Part shown: positions 16,743 to 32,000 of the stretch, piece by piece
Layout of the letters: the number at the start of each line of letters is the position of its first letter
How positions within the stretch are numbered: the first letter of the stretch is position 1
Notes under the pieces: model-generated
Database searches by the model: none
Told to the model about the DNA's origin: nothing
The model's input: only the letters and a program-made list of their open reading frames with translations
Translations under genes and position numbers: made by a program
Source of the DNA: Coprobacillaceae bacterium
GTDB lineage: Bacteria > Bacillota_I > Bacilli_A > Erysipelotrichales > Coprobacillaceae
Reading direction: 5' to 3'
Assembly: GCA_963675515.1 (NCBI GenBank)
Contig: OY776328.1
Location: 60,001 to 92,000, forward strand
Length of the DNA: 32,000 bases

Positions 16743-16916
16743 CAGAACTGCCTCCTTTTTTCACTTTATGATACAATTTTAGCACCTTACTTCGCTTATT
16801 GAAAGCAATACGCTTATTTTTTTCATAATTGTGAAATTTCATATCTTGGAAAAACGGCATGATTAATTTTTATCCCGATACAATAGAGCCATAAACTAAA
16901 GGAGGACTTTTTTTAA

Positions 16917-27424: not shown

Positions 27425-27451
27425 GCCATAGGCAAACGCCTGTGGCTTTTT
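27425..27451 (+). terminator. rho-independent terminator after the GH1 gene
   Basis: 9-bp stem GCCATAGGC/GCCTGTGGC (27425-27433 / 27438-27446) followed by TTTTT. Confidence 0.85.
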
Positions 27452-27513
27452 CCTTGCAAACATAGAAGATCGAATAGAGGGTAAGTAATCACGTGTGTTA
27501 CTTATCCCCTTTC

Positions 27514-27601
27514 ACACCACTTATACCGACTTTTGGATTATCCCGACAAATATGTATTTTTGAGGGATAGTCCTTTTTTGTATTATTAAAAGTCGGGATA
27601 A
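27514..27601. repeat. left terminal inverted repeat (IRL) of the RIT-type element
   Basis: Perfect inverted match to 30863-30950. It contains the boxes TTATACCGAC (27521-27530), TTATCCCGAC (27538-27547) and an inverted GTCGGGATAA (27592-27601). Confidence 0.9.
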
Positions 27602-27642: not shown

Positions 27643-28872
27643 ATGAAAAATTTGAATAGTATCGACGAATTAGTTCAGCTTGCTTTAAATAACCTGAAGT
27701 CTCAAGGCTATAATGAACTTACCATTCAGGCCTACGAATCCAGCTACTTTAACCCCATTTTGAAAAGATATTCTGACTTAAATCAAATAAACTATAGTCG
27801 GGAAATTATGGATTCACTGCTAAAGTTCTATCTTTCGCAACTTCAAAACAAAATTATTAGTAGGACCACCTATAATAAAAGAGTGCGTGGCGTCTTAATG
27901 ATTACCGAACTTAATGATTTCGGTTCCTTCAAGTGGAAAGTTTTCACATTTAAGAATGAAATCCCCATATCATCAGAGTTCCAAATCACAATAAAAGAAT
28001 ATTTGAAAAATAGAGAAGTATCTATTAGGACCCTTCAATTTGAAGAGCGAATCCTATATTTATTTTCAAATTTTCTAAACAATCATGATATTTTGCAACC
28101 GAAATTAATAAGTACTAGCGATATAGTGGAATTTATTAAGATCATCTCTAAGGATAACCCAAAATCCATGGAGAAGATACTCACTTGTCTGAAAAAATAT
28201 TTAGTTAATTTGTATAGAAATAATAAGATTGATTTTGATATAAGCTCCATCGTTTCCTTCGGTAAAATACGAGACAGGGCATTATATCCGCCAATAGATA
28301 TTATTGATCTTGTAGGAATTTTAAATTCAATTGATAGGGAGACACCTACCGGAAAAAGAAATTATGCGATTATAATATTGGGAGCAATGACAGGGCTAAG
28401 AGCTGGAGATATAGTACGGATTCAGCTTGAAGATATTGATTGGAAAAAACGCAAATTAAATATAGTTCAAGGGAAAACAAATAGTCCCCTAACAGTGCCA
28501 TTAACTGAGAGTGTCTGTAATGCAATTGCGGACTACATTCTAAATGGAAGACCCAAAACTGATGATAATAGTGTTTTCATAAGATCATTAGCTCCTTTTA
28601 CGGGGCTTAAAGACGGCTGTTCTATCGCTTCTTTTTTTAGAAGGTATCTACTGAAGGCTGGAATTGAACCCTCCCTTAAAACCGGGAACACTTTCCACTC
28701 TATTAGGCGGATGTTAGGGACTCAACTTATTATCAACGGCGTTCCGGTTACAATGATTGCACAGCTCTTGGGTCACCATTCGGTCATACCTACTAAGCAA
28801 TATATTTCACTTGATGTTGAGGGTTTGAGAAAGTGTGCGTTATCTATGGAAACACTTGGTGGTAGAATATGA
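27643..28872 (+). CDS. ritA: tyrosine recombinase, first gene of the trio (RitA position)
   Basis: 409 aa with catalytic-type residues in GLRAGDI (R), HSIRRMLGT (HxxR) and LLGHHSVIPTKQYISL (H...Y). AGGAGG SD. The stop overlaps the next start (ATGA). Confidence 0.8.
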   Translation: MKNLNSIDELVQLALNNLKSQGYNELTIQAYESSYFNPILKRYSDLNQINYSREIMDSLLKFYLSQLQNKIISRTTYNKRVRGVLMITELNDFGSFKWKVFTFKNEIPISSEFQITIKEYLKNREVSIRTLQFEERILYLFSNFLNNHDILQPKLISTSDIVEFIKIISKDNPKSMEKILTCLKKYLVNLYRNNKIDFDISSIVSFGKIRDRALYPPIDIIDLVGILNSIDRETPTGKRNYAIIILGAMTGLRAGDIVRIQLEDIDWKKRKLNIVQGKTNSPLTVPLTESVCNAIADYILNGRPKTDDNSVFIRSLAPFTGLKDGCSIASFFRRYLLKAGIEPSLKTGNTFHSIRRMLGTQLIINGVPVTMIAQLLGHHSVIPTKQYISLDVEGLRKCALSMETLGGRI

Positions 28873-29819
28873 AATTCATATATGATTATATCGCAGACAT
28901 GATTAAATATCGAATTGATTTAGGGTATTCGTTGCAACCAACTTCTTGGTATCTTAACGATTTTTCCAAATACTTGACGAATAATTTTCCCAGTGAAACA
29001 ATGCTTACTCAAGAAATGATCATGCCTTGGTGTGTGCAAAGGAAAACTGAGCAGGCGTGCAGTTTTCGATCTAGAATGTCATCAATAAGACAATTTACAC
29101 TTTACCTTTTTGCGAACGGAGCTTCCAACTTTGTACTTGATTTGAATTTCTTACCTAAAATCACAAGATATGTACCTTATATATTCACAAACATGGAGCT
29201 TAAAACCATTTTTGAAATGGCTGATAGTAAAAAATATATCAAACCTATGACGGCTAAAAATAGAATCATATCTGTAATCTATCGATTGATATACTTTTGT
29301 GGTCTTCGGCCAAACGAAGGTCGTGAAATAATGAAAAAAGATTTGGACTTGGATAATGGAACTATACTTATTAGAAAAAACAAAAATCATAAGGAACGTT
29401 TAATTCCAATGGCCGTTGATGTAACAGATATGATGCGCGAGTATATCGATGAAATGAAGTTAATATTTCCAAATACTGATTATGTTTTTCCATCTCCAAC
29501 CGGGCTTCCATATCATTCAAAATGGTTAAGGACGGAATTCTTGAAGATTTGGGATGAGATAAAGCCCGAGGGTGGTAGAGCTCGTGTAAGAGTATACGAT
29601 TTACGTCATCGCTGGGCGACAACTGTCATGATGAAACTCTTAAACGAAGGTGAAGATTTATATTCATTGCTTCCCTACATGAGTGCCTATATGGGTCATT
29701 CCAATTTCGAAGACACGGCTTATTATATTCACTTACTTCCAGAGGAATTAATTAAATCATCTGAAGTTGATTGGGAAAGGTTTTCCTCAATCATTCCTGA
29801 GGTGTCTAAGTATGACTGA
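28869..29819 (+). CDS. ritB: tyrosine recombinase, second gene of the trio (RitB position)
   Basis: 316 aa with GLRPNEGR, YDLRHRWATT and MGHSNFEDTAYYIH. Confidence 0.8.
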   Translation: MKFIYDYIADMIKYRIDLGYSLQPTSWYLNDFSKYLTNNFPSETMLTQEMIMPWCVQRKTEQACSFRSRMSSIRQFTLYLFANGASNFVLDLNFLPKITRYVPYIFTNMELKTIFEMADSKKYIKPMTAKNRIISVIYRLIYFCGLRPNEGREIMKKDLDLDNGTILIRKNKNHKERLIPMAVDVTDMMREYIDEMKLIFPNTDYVFPSPTGLPYHSKWLRTEFLKIWDEIKPEGGRARVRVYDLRHRWATTVMMKLLNEGEDLYSLLPYMSAYMGHSNFEDTAYYIHLLPEELIKSSEVDWERFSSIIPEVSKYD

Positions 29820-30861
29820 AAATTCATTATGTTTCTTCAAAATGATTAGAGATTATTTTGAGTCTTTCTTACCAAAACAAAAAGGAAACAGCTTCAACAC
29901 AATCAAATCCTATAAAATCACTATGAATCAATTTCTAAAATATGCATGTAACGCCAATAAAATCAAACTATCTGACTTTTGCTTCGAGATAACCTCGGTT
30001 AAGCTACTTGATAATTTTTTGAATGACGGTGAGCAATATTCCGGGTGGTCTTGCAGTACTAGAAATCAGAAACTGGCAGCAATTCGTTCGTTTTACAAAT
30101 ATGTTGCATCTCGCAATATTTCTTTAATGGCATATTACCAAGAACTACTTGCGGTCCCTATGAAAAAGATGTCCAAAAATAATCAGATTGAATACTTCTC
30201 CGAAAATGTTTTAGAAACATTACTTAGGCAGCCAAACACAAAAACAAAAAAAGGAATACGGGATTTGGTTTTCATGATACTAATGTATGACACTGGAGCT
30301 AGAATTCAGGAAATTTTGGATCTCAAAATTGGAGACCTGTTCCTATTTAGTGAAGTCCCGTACGTGAAACTAACAGGAAAGGGCAGTAAAGTAAGATTAG
30401 TCCCAATTATGGAAAAAACGATAAACCACTTGAAAAATTATCTATCGATATTTCACTTAAAATCAAAAGACGATAGCTTCGTTTTTTGTTCAAAACGAAA
30501 GGAAATCATCAGTCAACTGTCGCCAGATGCTGTTCAAAAATTTATTGATAAATATTGTGCATCCGCTCATGATGTAGATGAAGAAGTACCTATTCATATT
30601 TATCCGCATATGTTCCGCCATTCTAGAGCCATGCATTTATATCATGGTGGAATGCCGCTACCACTTATTTCCGAATGGCTTGGACATGCGCAAGTTTCTA
30701 CAACAATGGAATTTTATGCGCAGGCAACATTAGAAATGAAAAAACAGGCAATTGAGCAGGCTACAGAAGCAATTAGCCCCTTAATAAATATTTCTAATAA
30801 ATACAATCTGGATTTTGAAAATGATGAAGAACTGATTAAAAGGCTCTATGGATTGATATGA
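29812..30861 (+). CDS. ritC: tyrosine recombinase, third gene of the trio (RitC position)
   Basis: Start placed at ATG 29812 (MTENSLCFF..., GAGGTG 7 nt upstream), which overlaps the ritB stop by 8 nt. Has TGARIQEIL, HMFRHSRAMH and LGHAQVSTTMEFYAQ. The stop lies 1 nt before IRR. Confidence 0.8.
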   Translation: MTENSLCFFKMIRDYFESFLPKQKGNSFNTIKSYKITMNQFLKYACNANKIKLSDFCFEITSVKLLDNFLNDGEQYSGWSCSTRNQKLAAIRSFYKYVASRNISLMAYYQELLAVPMKKMSKNNQIEYFSENVLETLLRQPNTKTKKGIRDLVFMILMYDTGARIQEILDLKIGDLFLFSEVPYVKLTGKGSKVRLVPIMEKTINHLKNYLSIFHLKSKDDSFVFCSKRKEIISQLSPDAVQKFIDKYCASAHDVDEEVPIHIYPHMFRHSRAMHLYHGGMPLPLISEWLGHAQVSTTMEFYAQATLEMKKQAIEQATEAISPLINISNKYNLDFENDEELIKRLYGLI

Positions 30862-30862
30862 G

Positions 30863-30950
30863 TTATCCCGACTTTTAATAATACAAAAAAGGACTATCCC
30901 TCAAAAATACATATTTGTCGGGATAATCCAAAAGTCGGTATAAGTGGTGT
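30863..30950. repeat. right terminal inverted repeat (IRR) of the RIT-type element
   Basis: Perfect reverse complement of 27514-27601. Confidence 0.9.
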
Positions 30951-30975
30951 TATCCCGATATCGGGATAACACCAC
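30944..30975. repeat. 32-bp perfect palindrome GTGGTGTTATCCCGAT|ATCGGGATAACACCAC straddling the IRR end
   Basis: Manual reverse complement is identical. It consists of the last 7 nt of IRR, two inverted TATCCCGAT boxes, and a second copy of ACACCAC, the first 7 nt of IRL. Confidence 0.9.
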
Positions 30976-31001
30976 CGTACATACGGTTCCGTATACGGCG
31001 G
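30972..31001 (-). ncRNA. group II intron domain V-like hairpin
   Basis: Minus strand reads CCGCCGUAU-ACG-GAAC-CGU-AU-GUACGGUGG. It has a 9-bp lower helix with CGC at positions 2-4 and a G.U wobble at the G, a 2-nt bulge on the 3' strand, a 3-bp upper helix and a 4-nt loop. It starts 1 nt after the RT ORF stop codon. Confidence 0.65.
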
Positions 31002-31002
31002 T

Positions 31003-32000
31003 TCAGCACTTTACGCGTTTATAGTAATCTAAAAAGAATATATAGTTTAATGATTTGATATATTCATTCGACAGCGTCTTACTAAGAACTGGGCTATGGG
31101 CAATTCGCCAATAGCCTTTTCTTGTGTTCGCATTTCGATATGCTTCATTGTCATTCATTCCTAACTTGACGAGGTTTTCATGCCTAGTCTTTATTTTCTT
31201 CCATTGTTTCCACAATCGGCATCTAATCTTGGCCCGCATCCATTGGTCTGTTTCAGACATCAGTGTCTTCATGTTGGCTATTTTGAAATAGTTGACCCAT
31301 CCCATGATGAATCTTCTGAGCATTACTGGGTGATAATCATTTGATATATGCCCTTTTGTCTTGCTTAGAAGTTCCCTCATGCGGTTCTTCATTTTGACAA
31401 CTGACTTGGGGTGTACTCTAACCTGAGCGCCATCTTTATTGAAATAGAACCCAAAGCCAAGAAACTTCACTTTTGGTGCATAGGCAACCACAGTTTTGTC
31501 TCTGTTGACTTTTAGTTTCAGCTTGCCTTCAATGAACTCAGTTACTGATTTCATGACTCTTTGTGCCCCCCTTGAACTTTTGCAGAGTATCATTACGTCA
31601 TCCGCGTAGCGAACGAAGCGGTGGCCTCGTTGTTCCAGTTCCCTATCCAATTCGTTGAGCATAATGTTTGAAAGTATCGGACTGAGTGGTCCTCCTTGAG
31701 GTACGCCGACTATGGTCTTTCGATATTCTCCTTCAACTTCTACTCCCGCATTGAGATAACGGTTAATGAGCGAAATCACTCTTCCATCCTTGATTGTCTT
31801 TGACAGTATCGTTATCAGTTTATCATGATTGACCGTGTCAAAGTATTTCTCCAAGTCCATATCTACGATTTGACGGTATCCGGCATTGAGATTTTCAACG
31901 CATTTTTCAATCGCATCGTGGGCACTTCTTTGGGGGCGGAATCCATAACTATTTTCACTAAACAACGGTTCGTAGATAGGTGTCAGCACTTGGGCGATTG
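31003..32000 (-). CDS. group II intron reverse transcriptase/maturase (partial; N-terminus beyond the window end; no C-terminal endonuclease domain visible)
   Basis: Has LTPIYEPLFSENSYGFRPQRSAHDAI, DLEKYFDTVNH, GVPQGGPLSPILSNI, the YADD motif in RYADDVMIL, and a maturase X-like region (RRFIMGWVNYF). The frame stays open to position 32000. Confidence 0.9.
   Translation of the reverse strand, partial: IAQVLTPIYEPLFSENSYGFRPQRSAHDAIEKCVENLNAGYRQIVDMDLEKYFDTVNHDKLITILSKTIKDGRVISLINRYLNAGVEVEGEYRKTIVGVPQGGPLSPILSNIMLNELDRELEQRGHRFVRYADDVMILCKSSRGAQRVMKSVTEFIEGKLKLKVNRDKTVVAYAPKVKFLGFGFYFNKDGAQVRVHPKSVVKMKNRMRELLSKTKGHISNDYHPVMLRRFIMGWVNYFKIANMKTLMSETDQWMRAKIRCRLWKQWKKIKTRHENLVKLGMNDNEAYRNANTRKGYWRIAHSPVLSKTLSNEYIKSLNYIFFLDYYKRVKC

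Follow-up and report, generated by a model that had tools for sequence, protein, structure and literature searches.

Predicted dif-like recombination sites with a target-following spacer at the ends of a RIT element inserted in a group II intron

RIT (recombinase in trio) elements have been known since 2009 and are found across bacterial phyla; examples from Cupriavidus metallidurans CH34 and C. necator pHG1 were reportedly described by Van Houdt in 2009 and 2012 and by Ricker in 2013. Here we analyse a RIT element in a stretch of 32,000 nucleotides from a Coprobacillaceae bacterium (contig OY776328.1, positions 60,001 to 92,000), which as a whole is called the window below, and in particular a palindromic region at the ritC end of that element. 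RIT elements are already known, and the new part would be the anatomy of their sites together with the crossover model proposed here from comparisons of sequence.

Several described systems provide a frame for this comparison. The dif site of E. coli reads GGTGCGCATAA-TGTATA-TTATGTTAAAT, and mobile elements such as the CTX phage integrate at dif through the host Xer recombinases. The integrases of Tn916 and CTnDOT carry out exchange across a 6-7-bp overlap in which the partners need not match, and IntDOT requires identity only beside the first cleavage site. Tn554, the SEs (strand-biased circularizing elements) and the GInts carry a 6-bp junction sequence from site to site (PMC10214605). As of 2023, no laboratory had reproduced RIT transposition, and neither target specificity nor mode of movement had been formally tested (PMC10214605). 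RIT ends have been described as an inverted repeat with an 'overlapping palindromic sequence' that does not fit known site architectures (PMC3414803). No description of a core site, crossover region or target of RITs was found in the literature searched, a scope outside which Ricker 2013 lies.

Our preferred reading, to which we assign a probability of roughly 0.72, is that the palindrome region comprises the recombination sites of an intact RIT, and that a conservative tyrosine-recombinase crossover would occur within a spacer that tolerates differences between partners.

Anatomy of the element and its ends

The inserted unit is 3455 bp long (~3.45 kb), made up of 3448 bp plus a 7-bp duplication. 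Its features, with the candidate recombination sites L, M and R and the intron segments on either side, are as follows (positions in the window).

27467-27513, minus strand: group II intron domain VI and 3' end, forming the left flank and separated from domain V by the element (the 27467 edge is approximate, set by eye from an alignment)
27514-27520, plus strand: left junction repeat ACACCAC, with spacer CACCAC at 27515-27520; part of site L (flank-X-armA); present as a single copy in intact introns
27521-27601, plus strand: left inverted repeat, with terminal arm A TTATACCGAC at 27521-27530 and internal motif copies at 27538-27547 (plus) and 27592-27601 (minus)
27643-28872, plus strand: ritA, tyrosine recombinase, 409 amino acids (Pfam PF00589, E=2.9e-27)
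28869-29819, plus strand: ritB, tyrosine recombinase, 316 amino acids (Pfam PF00589, E=4.3e-22), overlapping ritA by 4 bp
29767-30861, plus strand: ritC, tyrosine recombinase, reading frame counted from TTG 29767 (PF00589, E=4.8e-31, plus an N-terminal SAM-like domain)
30863-30943, plus strand: right inverted repeat, ending in arm A' GTCGGTATAA at 30934-30943
30934-30959, plus strand: site M, armA'-GTGGTG-armB, or GTCGGTATAA-GTGGTG-TTATCCCGAT; the sole complete core site in the integrated element
30950-30969, no strand: perfect palindrome armB/armB', TTATCCCGAT/ATCGGGATAA, from the repeat search; the symmetry centre if the ends were joined
30969-30975, plus strand: right junction repeat ACACCAC, in site R (armB'-X-flank); its CACCAC is also the native domain V 3' end and linker
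30976-31003, minus strand: group II intron domain V of the CGC-triad type, forming the right flank (Rfam RF00029, 29.7 bits, E=0.0013, gathering threshold 40)
31003-31989, minus strand: group II intron reverse transcriptase/maturase reading frame (Pfam RVT_1 and GIIM; NCBIfam TIGR04416, 299.4 bits, model positions 85-353)

Past arm A', the right end continues with GTGGTG (30944-30949), TTATCCCGAT (30950-30959), ATCGGGATAA (30960-30969), CACCAC (30970-30975) and CGTACATACG (30976-30985). The overall layout is therefore best written as flank-X-armA...armA'-revcomp(X)-armB/armB'-X-flank, in which site L (flank-CACCAC-armA) occupies 27515-27530, site M 30934-30959 and site R (armB'-CACCAC-flank) 30960-30975. 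All of the bases quoted in the original prediction, an annotation made from the letters of the window, are present, including the perfect 32-bp palindrome at 30944-30975, which the repeat search recovers at the ritC end and for which our own arithmetic gives a chance expectation of ~7e-6 per 32 kb. That prediction had set the boundary of the inverted repeat at TTATACCGAC. The repeat search instead yields a terminal inverted repeat of 88 nt that is 100% complementary (27514-27601 and 30863-30950), and both ACACCAC at the left end and GTGGTGT at the right end lie within it.

The element ends are rich in one motif, TTATMCCGAY, which occurs nine times in the window (0.25 expected; 0 of 100 shuffles reach nine), eight of these in the two ends. 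ACACCAC is not enriched by itself, with four occurrences in the window against 2.3 expected, and its weight comes not from abundance but from its placement at both junctions, together with an inverted copy at 30944-30950. A lone TTATCCCGAT also lies at 16870-16879 and is probably there by chance. Each inverted repeat holds an internal inverted pair, TTATACCGACTTTT and AAAAGTCGGGATAA, set 53 nt apart, that gives a strong single-stranded DNA fold (z=-7.5 for the right repeat). A spacer followed by a hairpin-capable segment is thus a feature of both the element and its target (domain V), and this arrangement could bear on target recognition.

If the two ends were joined, the sequence at the joint is predicted to read ...GTCGGTATAAGTGGTGTTATCCCGATATCGGGATAACACCACTTATACCGAC..., and the core ATCGGGATAACACCACTTATACCGAC within this joint is the exact reverse complement of 30934-30959, as had been proposed. 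The earlier idea of mirror-image core sites likewise holds, since end joining would yield a perfect palindrome of 194 bp bearing two such cores, a'-X'-b and b'-X-a. The inner bases of the core follow the pattern ATAA-N6-TTAT seen at Xer/dif sites. Further points of likeness to Xer/dif are the two inverted arms of 10-11 bp, the 6-bp centre and the fact that the best NCBIfam matches of the Rit proteins are XerA, XerC and XerD. However, these matches score only 75-145 bits against cut-offs of 220-335 bits. Unlike Xer/dif, the RIT encodes three recombinases of its own, has its sites within the transposable unit, shows a central region that varies between copies, and targets introns and insertion sequence (IS) genes rather than chromosomal dif.

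The window element is an intact RIT mobile element whose genes encode only three Xer-like tyrosine recombinases. This assignment follows from three adjacent PF00589 genes with overlaps of 4-8 bp, a position-by-position likeness to the pHG1 trio, and occurrence in multiple copies. The genes ritA, ritB and ritC are open reading frames on the same strand between the inverted repeats, each encoding a tyrosine-recombinase catalytic domain (PF00589). In BLASTP comparisons with the C. necator pHG1 trio, RitA is most similar to the product of the first gene (E=2e-49), RitB to that of the second (E=2e-44) and RitC to that of the third (E=7e-62), whereas off-position pairs reach only E=1e-5 to 1e-12. 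The catalytic R...HxxR...H/W...Y residues can be recognized by eye, without formal alignment, in the translations of all three proteins (HSIRR...GHHS...QYI in RitA, LRHRW...GHSN...AYYI in RitB and FRHSR...GHAQ...EFY in RitC). At least three members of the RitA cluster are present in the source genome, on one contig of 2.88 Mb, and a scan of genome contigs gave only relatives at or below 37% identity.

The true start of ritC is probably ATG 29812 (MTENS...) rather than TTG 29767, because the former gives an 8-bp overlap between ritB and ritC that is typical of RITs. Two core-binding domains in RitA and an extra C-terminal helix in RitC have been reported as RIT traits (Smyshlyaev 2021, PMC8138268), and the lengths of RitA (409 amino acids) and RitC (~349-364 amino acids) are compatible with these. 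Among open reading frames of at least 60 amino acids, no accessory or non-recombinase gene was found between the inverted repeats; the only others are two short antisense frames inside ritB. The element shares with known RITs the overlapping A-B-C trio, a length of ~3.5 kb, multiple copies, inverted repeats and a palindrome overlapping one end (PMC3414803). It differs from them in its low-GC host, its location in a group II intron, and inverted repeats that are much longer (88 nt, perfect) and contain repeated TTATCCCGA motifs.

An insertion that splits a group II intron

Alignment with intact introns places the RIT exactly at the boundary of domains V and VI in a minus-strand group II intron. 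The target suggested originally was a chromosomal pseudo-site containing CACCAC. What is found instead is the domain V/VI boundary, which is used again by relatives of the element: the window family and three relatives with 38-41% RitA identity occupy this same point in different introns. Domain V extends on the minus strand from 31003 to ~30970, such that CACCAC belongs to the intron itself, forming the last bases of domain V and the linker to domain VI. The reverse transcriptase/maturase reading frame beyond it seems to extend outside the window.

A megablast comparison of the element region with plasmids matched over only 38 nt, at 100% identity and starting exactly at 30969; the matching sequences are the domain V of intact introns carried by plasmids of B. 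thuringiensis and the Pseudomonas group. In such intact relatives the sequence is ...CTCTC-ACACCAC-CGTACATACGG, with ACACCAC present once. When 27440-27520 is joined to 30976-31010, the reconstructed empty site is colinear with introns of B. thuringiensis pBMB7 and S. stutzeri, and its fold contains both domains; an empty target is expected to read ...CCCCTTTCACACCACCGTACATACGG.... ACACCAC is present at both junctions of the occupied intron, and therefore the insertion duplicated 7 bp that the target carried once. The 7-bp junction repeat noted earlier is in this sense a real target duplication or overlap. With the intron split between domains V and VI, splicing should be blocked.

An Rfam scan of the window gave no hits at the gathering threshold. 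A permissive scan aligned positions 1-77 of RF00029 over 30917-31003 (E=0.0013), and this alignment is the one observation that could be taken to mean that the palindrome is simply domain VI of the intron. We give this explanation almost no credence. The score of 29.7 bits, against a gathering threshold of 40, comes from domain V, and it falls below the threshold because the element separates domain V from domain VI; the intact intron L001 reaches 44.6 bits. Moreover, the alignment requires a 13-nt insertion and pairs copies of the RIT motif with each other, and the true domain VI, with its conserved CTAYTCGAT 3' end, aligns to intact introns at ~27467-27513. After alignment with intact introns, the domain VI half of the RF00029 match on element sequence was rejected as spurious.

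Spacers that probably track the target

For metagenome and Logan contigs, we relied on short-range contexts, and statements on long-range structure are drawn mainly from complete replicons. Exceptions are L035, a contig from ENA, and L079 and L087, which are metagenome contigs. L035 carries a RIT copy that is 94.8% identical to that of the window and that occupies the domain V/VI position of another group II intron, in another genomic setting. Both 81-bp repeats and the 20-bp palindrome are 100% identical between the two copies. In contrast, the three spacers read TCAAAC, GTTTGA and TCAAAC in L035 and CACCAC, GTGGTG and CACCAC in the window, with four of the six positions differing in all three. 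By our own reading, GTTTGA is native to the L035 intron, because it completes the pairing of that intron's domain V. Differences between copies at the element ends are confined to the three 6-bp spacers, from which the probable points of strand exchange are read by comparison only.

These findings also revise the expectation that CACCAC would recur at the junctions of other copies. L035 carries TCAAAC there, which rejects a fixed, element-specific CACCAC core, while a repeat of 6-7 bp at both junctions is retained.

More distant relatives show spacers of mixed origin. Families B (41% RitA identity) and C (38%), as well as L156, lie at the domain V/VI junction of bona fide introns. In B and C, the spacers are CACCAC, CAGAAC and GTTCTG, arranged as armA'-GTGGTG-b/b'-CAGAAC-domain V and as domain V-GTGGTG-b/b'-CACCAC-armA...armA'-GTTCTG-domain VI. 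The spacers of L156 are CACCAC, GATCTG and CAGCAC. The changes in B, C and L156 fall exactly at the borders between arm and spacer, and GTTCTG agrees with the domain V 3' end of the Rfam consensus, GGUUCuG. Copying in one step that always gives three spacers of the target type was rejected as a general rule, since it conflicts with the mixed spacers of L016, L026, L034 and L156.

A scan of JGI metagenomes for the b/b' palindrome recovered 114 distinct contexts, and the same or a near-identical 20-mer adjoins RIT ends in at least 72 distinct metagenome contexts. In 30 of the 72 contexts with the form armA'-S-palindrome-S-flank, complementarity between the two spacers is perfect (random expectation for a perfect match, 0.0002), and another 36 have one to three mismatches. 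Mismatches at spacer positions 1 to 6 number 17, 12, 15, 20, 10 and 2, respectively. Position 6, the base beside armA or the flank, is thus avoided by mismatches and almost always common to both spacers. This conserved position parallels the identity rule of IntDOT. Tn916 and CTnDOT are otherwise different, as large conjugative elements with arm-type sites and an excisionase that have neither terminal inverted repeats nor a palindrome.

Two simpler accounts of the junctions can be weighed against these data. According to the first, the 7-bp repeat is an ordinary target-site duplication from a staggered cut, and the internal GTGGTG and palindrome are unrelated to it, serving for example as a ritC terminator or an operator. 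The junction spacers of the window and L035 do equal each other and the native sequence of the target, and the junctions of L034 carry one 7-mer from which the internal copy differs by a single base, as this account would have it. Nevertheless, we judge it highly unlikely. A Pfam search found no DDE or other transposase in the element, only tyrosine recombinases. The internal spacer co-varies with the junction repeat in the window, in L035 and in five other families, and duplication cannot produce the unequal junction spacers of L026 and L156. The palindrome has no loop or T-run, and its role as a terminator was set aside because none is predicted at the site.

The second account was considered in light of palindromes that occur alone. 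Solo armB/armB' palindromes with no RIT body are found in metagenomes (L083, L087, L130 and L133), flanked by 6-bp spacers and the inverted 10-mers GCATTGCTTG ... CAAGCAATGC, and the spacers beside the same flanks vary between samples. L079 and L087 are contigs of 99.9% identity that form an occupied/empty pair, in which one RIT unit lies beside the resident palindrome. Such sites would allow armB/armB'-CACCAC in the window to be what is left of another RIT copy after extensive deletion, or a solo end that the target carried beforehand. This is very improbable indeed, given that intact introns hold only ACACCAC between domains V and VI, that the palindrome moves with the element into another intron (L035), and that RITs of at least seven families have a palindrome at one end. 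The palindrome is also 100% conserved, compared with 5% divergence in the rest of the element.

The preferred reading, with recombination sites built of arms around a spacer, extends to RITs that have only 27-33% RitA identity, in each of which the site layout recurs with its own X. Examples are listed below.

Robertmurraya (L003): spacer ATGTCGA; target, IS66 transposase
Lentibacillus (L006): spacer TCGTAGA; target, another IS66 transposase, at the same codons as in L003
Ferrovum (L011): spacer TAATTG; target, istB
C. necator pHG1 (L031): spacer TAGCGC; palindrome on the ritA side
R. albus (L033): spacer GAGATT
Rhodococcus (L034): spacer TCGTCGA at the junctions, TCATCGA internally

Cores in the other families are ATAA-N6-TTAT or close to it, and the arm-6 bp-arm arrangement holds with the exception of one partial parse. 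The recurrence of a 26-bp core with dif-like inner bases in unrelated RIT families bears out the original interpretation of the sequence as a tyrosine-recombinase core site. Removal of the element together with one spacer copy gives a 519-amino-acid IS66 transposase reading frame with a Pfam match (profile 1-283/284) that is unbroken across the junction. Removal of an element plus one spacer copy similarly restores an IS21 IstA-type reading frame and an IstB fragment. At pHG1, the same operation with one spacer yields a 337-amino-acid frame with no Pfam match at E<=0.001, in which tyrosine-recombinase-like motifs can be seen by eye and whose right flank carries an annotated integrase gene. The exact 27-nt inverted-repeat pattern gave no metagenome matches.

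RITs are very often located inside other mobile elements (L003, L006, L011, L031, L032, L033, and families B and C, which comprise L015-L030). Targets seen are the xVD of VDGYxGYN in two different IS66 transposases, the istA and istB genes of IS21, and on pHG1 a reading frame beside an annotated integrase gene. In group II introns, they are the domain V/VI junction or the GG(I/V)ISP motif of the reverse transcriptase.

Proposed crossover, inversion and the free form

In our proposal, the 10-bp arms are bound by the recombinases, and strand exchange takes place at both edges of the 6-bp spacer, in the manner of Xer at dif. Integration would be a conservative crossover in which the armB'-X-armA core of the joined ends recombines with a 6-mer in the target, giving the integrated structure that is observed. 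Differences inside the spacer would be tolerated, with identity wanted at the position next to armA or the flank, and a heteroduplex product would segregate at replication to leave mixed spacers such as those of families B and C, L034 and L156. Recombination between L and M would invert the body, after which both sites would share one spacer in each daughter. A few rounds of such inversion and of excision and reintegration could bring all three spacers to the sequence of the last target, as seen in the window and L035. The donor form would most simply be a circle whose joint is the 194-bp palindrome with its two cores, and this is the least certain part of the proposal.

Inversion has a counterpart among sequenced copies. 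The complete chromosome of Robertmurraya sp. 2P01SA carries three copies (L003, L004 and L005) of a 5.9-kb IS66::RIT composite, and in L005 the orientation of the RIT body against flanks plus palindrome is the reverse of that in L003 and L004; two copies that are near-identical in other respects thus carry the body in opposite orientations. Because the body is flipped in place, this copy suggests that RIT sites double as an inversion system. Across families, the palindrome lies at the ritC end in the window, L035, R. albus and Rhodococcus, and at the ritA end in pHG1.

Some copies have unusual combinations of ends. In L027 and L032, the palindrome is absent from both ends and the flanks come from two different introns in inverted orientation. 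In L018, L090 and L135, a palindrome is present at both ends with inverted flanks, which are identical in L090 and nearly so in L135. These five could be reciprocal products of RIT-mediated inversion, or else assembly chimeras; the long-range structures of L018, L090 and L135 were not used as evidence, and L027 and L032 were not used as primary evidence.

Like the RIT, Tn554, SEs and GInts are small and encode several tyrosine recombinases, and the junction that they carry along resembles the mixed spacers of RITs. However, they need a non-recombinase partner (TnpC, Srap or GinD) and have neither long inverted repeats nor a palindromic joint, whereas the RIT has three catalytic recombinases, two mirror-image cores and a body that flips in place.

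With regard to the free form, the circular Logan contig L019 has a 30-nt (k-1) end overlap, occurs in 13 samples and has the structure armA'-S-palindrome-S-armA, passing from the ritC-side repeat via the palindrome into sequence specific to the left repeat. Many Logan and ENA contigs encoding RitA homologues measure 3.2-3.5 kb and so match the element in length; among them are circular unitigs and contigs that stop exactly at the palindrome centre. These element-length contigs may stem from a free form, or from assemblies that broke within the inverted repeats. A circular intermediate with a 194-bp palindromic joint is a plausible candidate for the free form.

A number of points weigh against the preferred reading. 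The circle-type context, with armA on both sides, is found in 0 of the 114 palindrome contexts from JGI metagenomes. A mobilome study found RITs to be enriched in exonuclease-resistant DNA but reported no read pairs across a circle junction (PMC5737581). The circularity of L019 could be that of a de Bruijn-graph cycle formed from two kinds of integrated copy, and long-range linkage in metagenome contigs is in general unreliable because assemblers may mis-join flanks across long inverted repeats. With respect to the spacers, heteroduplex segregation alone does not give the (target, target, target) state in one step, and the states of the window and L035 need extra rounds of inversion or of excision and reintegration, or else a copying step. 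The cleavage positions are deduced from comparisons alone. Finally, half-sites in the target flanks show no resemblance to the arms, with a mean match of 1.53 versus 1.54 in the control, and arm-like half-sites were dropped as a target determinant.

The 0/114 count and the lack of circle junctions in the mobilome study make it possible that the same sites serve a free form that is not a circle but a linear duplex with covalently closed hairpin ends. In this case, armB/armB' would undergo cutting and sealing of the kind seen at telomere-resolution sites, or the 194-bp joint would be resolved as a cruciform; for integration, one end would go through a core-site crossover and the two hairpins would be fused again. 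Hairpin intermediates were indeed proposed by the authors of the mobilome study (PMC5737581), who found RITs enriched in exonuclease-resistant DNA. The telomere resolvases TelK, TelN and ResT apply tyrosine-recombinase chemistry to a perfect palindrome, and activity of this kind would explain a form that is exonuclease-resistant and non-circular. The RIT palindrome is likewise perfect and has no spacer, and three recombinases exceed the needs of a simple crossover. Contigs L157 and L158 terminate at the palindrome centre at both ends, as a hairpin-capped form would, and are in themselves neutral between such a form and a circle.

We nonetheless consider a hairpin-capped linear form unlikely. 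Unlike TelK, TelN and ResT, the proteins RitA, RitB and RitC contain no telomere-resolvase or protelomerase domain in Pfam and NCBIfam searches, which give only Phage_integrase, SAM-like and Xer-like matches, the catalytic domain being that of ordinary integrases. The scheme requires extra steps and explains the spacer patterns no better, and L019 crosses the palindrome from the ritC-side repeat to the left repeat in the manner of a circle. In addition, circle junctions may have been missed because the joint would be a long perfect palindrome, which by its size alone would defeat read-pair mapping.

A more speculative version, which we regard as rather doubtful, has the Rit proteins dividing their labour, with one of them acting in a telomere-resolvase-like manner at the armB/armB' centre to give a hairpin-capped linear form, and with the spacers rewritten at each target. 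If true, the RIT would be a self-reprogramming tyrosine-recombinase transposon with a hairpin intermediate. We know of no bacterial transposon for which such a mechanism has been described.

Taken at the strength given above, the preferred reading of the palindrome region as a set of RIT recombination sites would provide a testable model for these elements, consisting of a 26-bp dif-like core, a 6-bp crossover region that follows the target, the three sites L, M and R, and inversion in place. It would offer a reason why circle junctions may have gone undetected, in that the joint would be a long perfect palindrome, and it would supply a practical rule for locating RIT boundaries in genome annotation. 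It also draws attention to a strong tendency of RITs toward other mobile elements, as seen at the intron domain V/VI junction and in the genes of IS66 and IS21.

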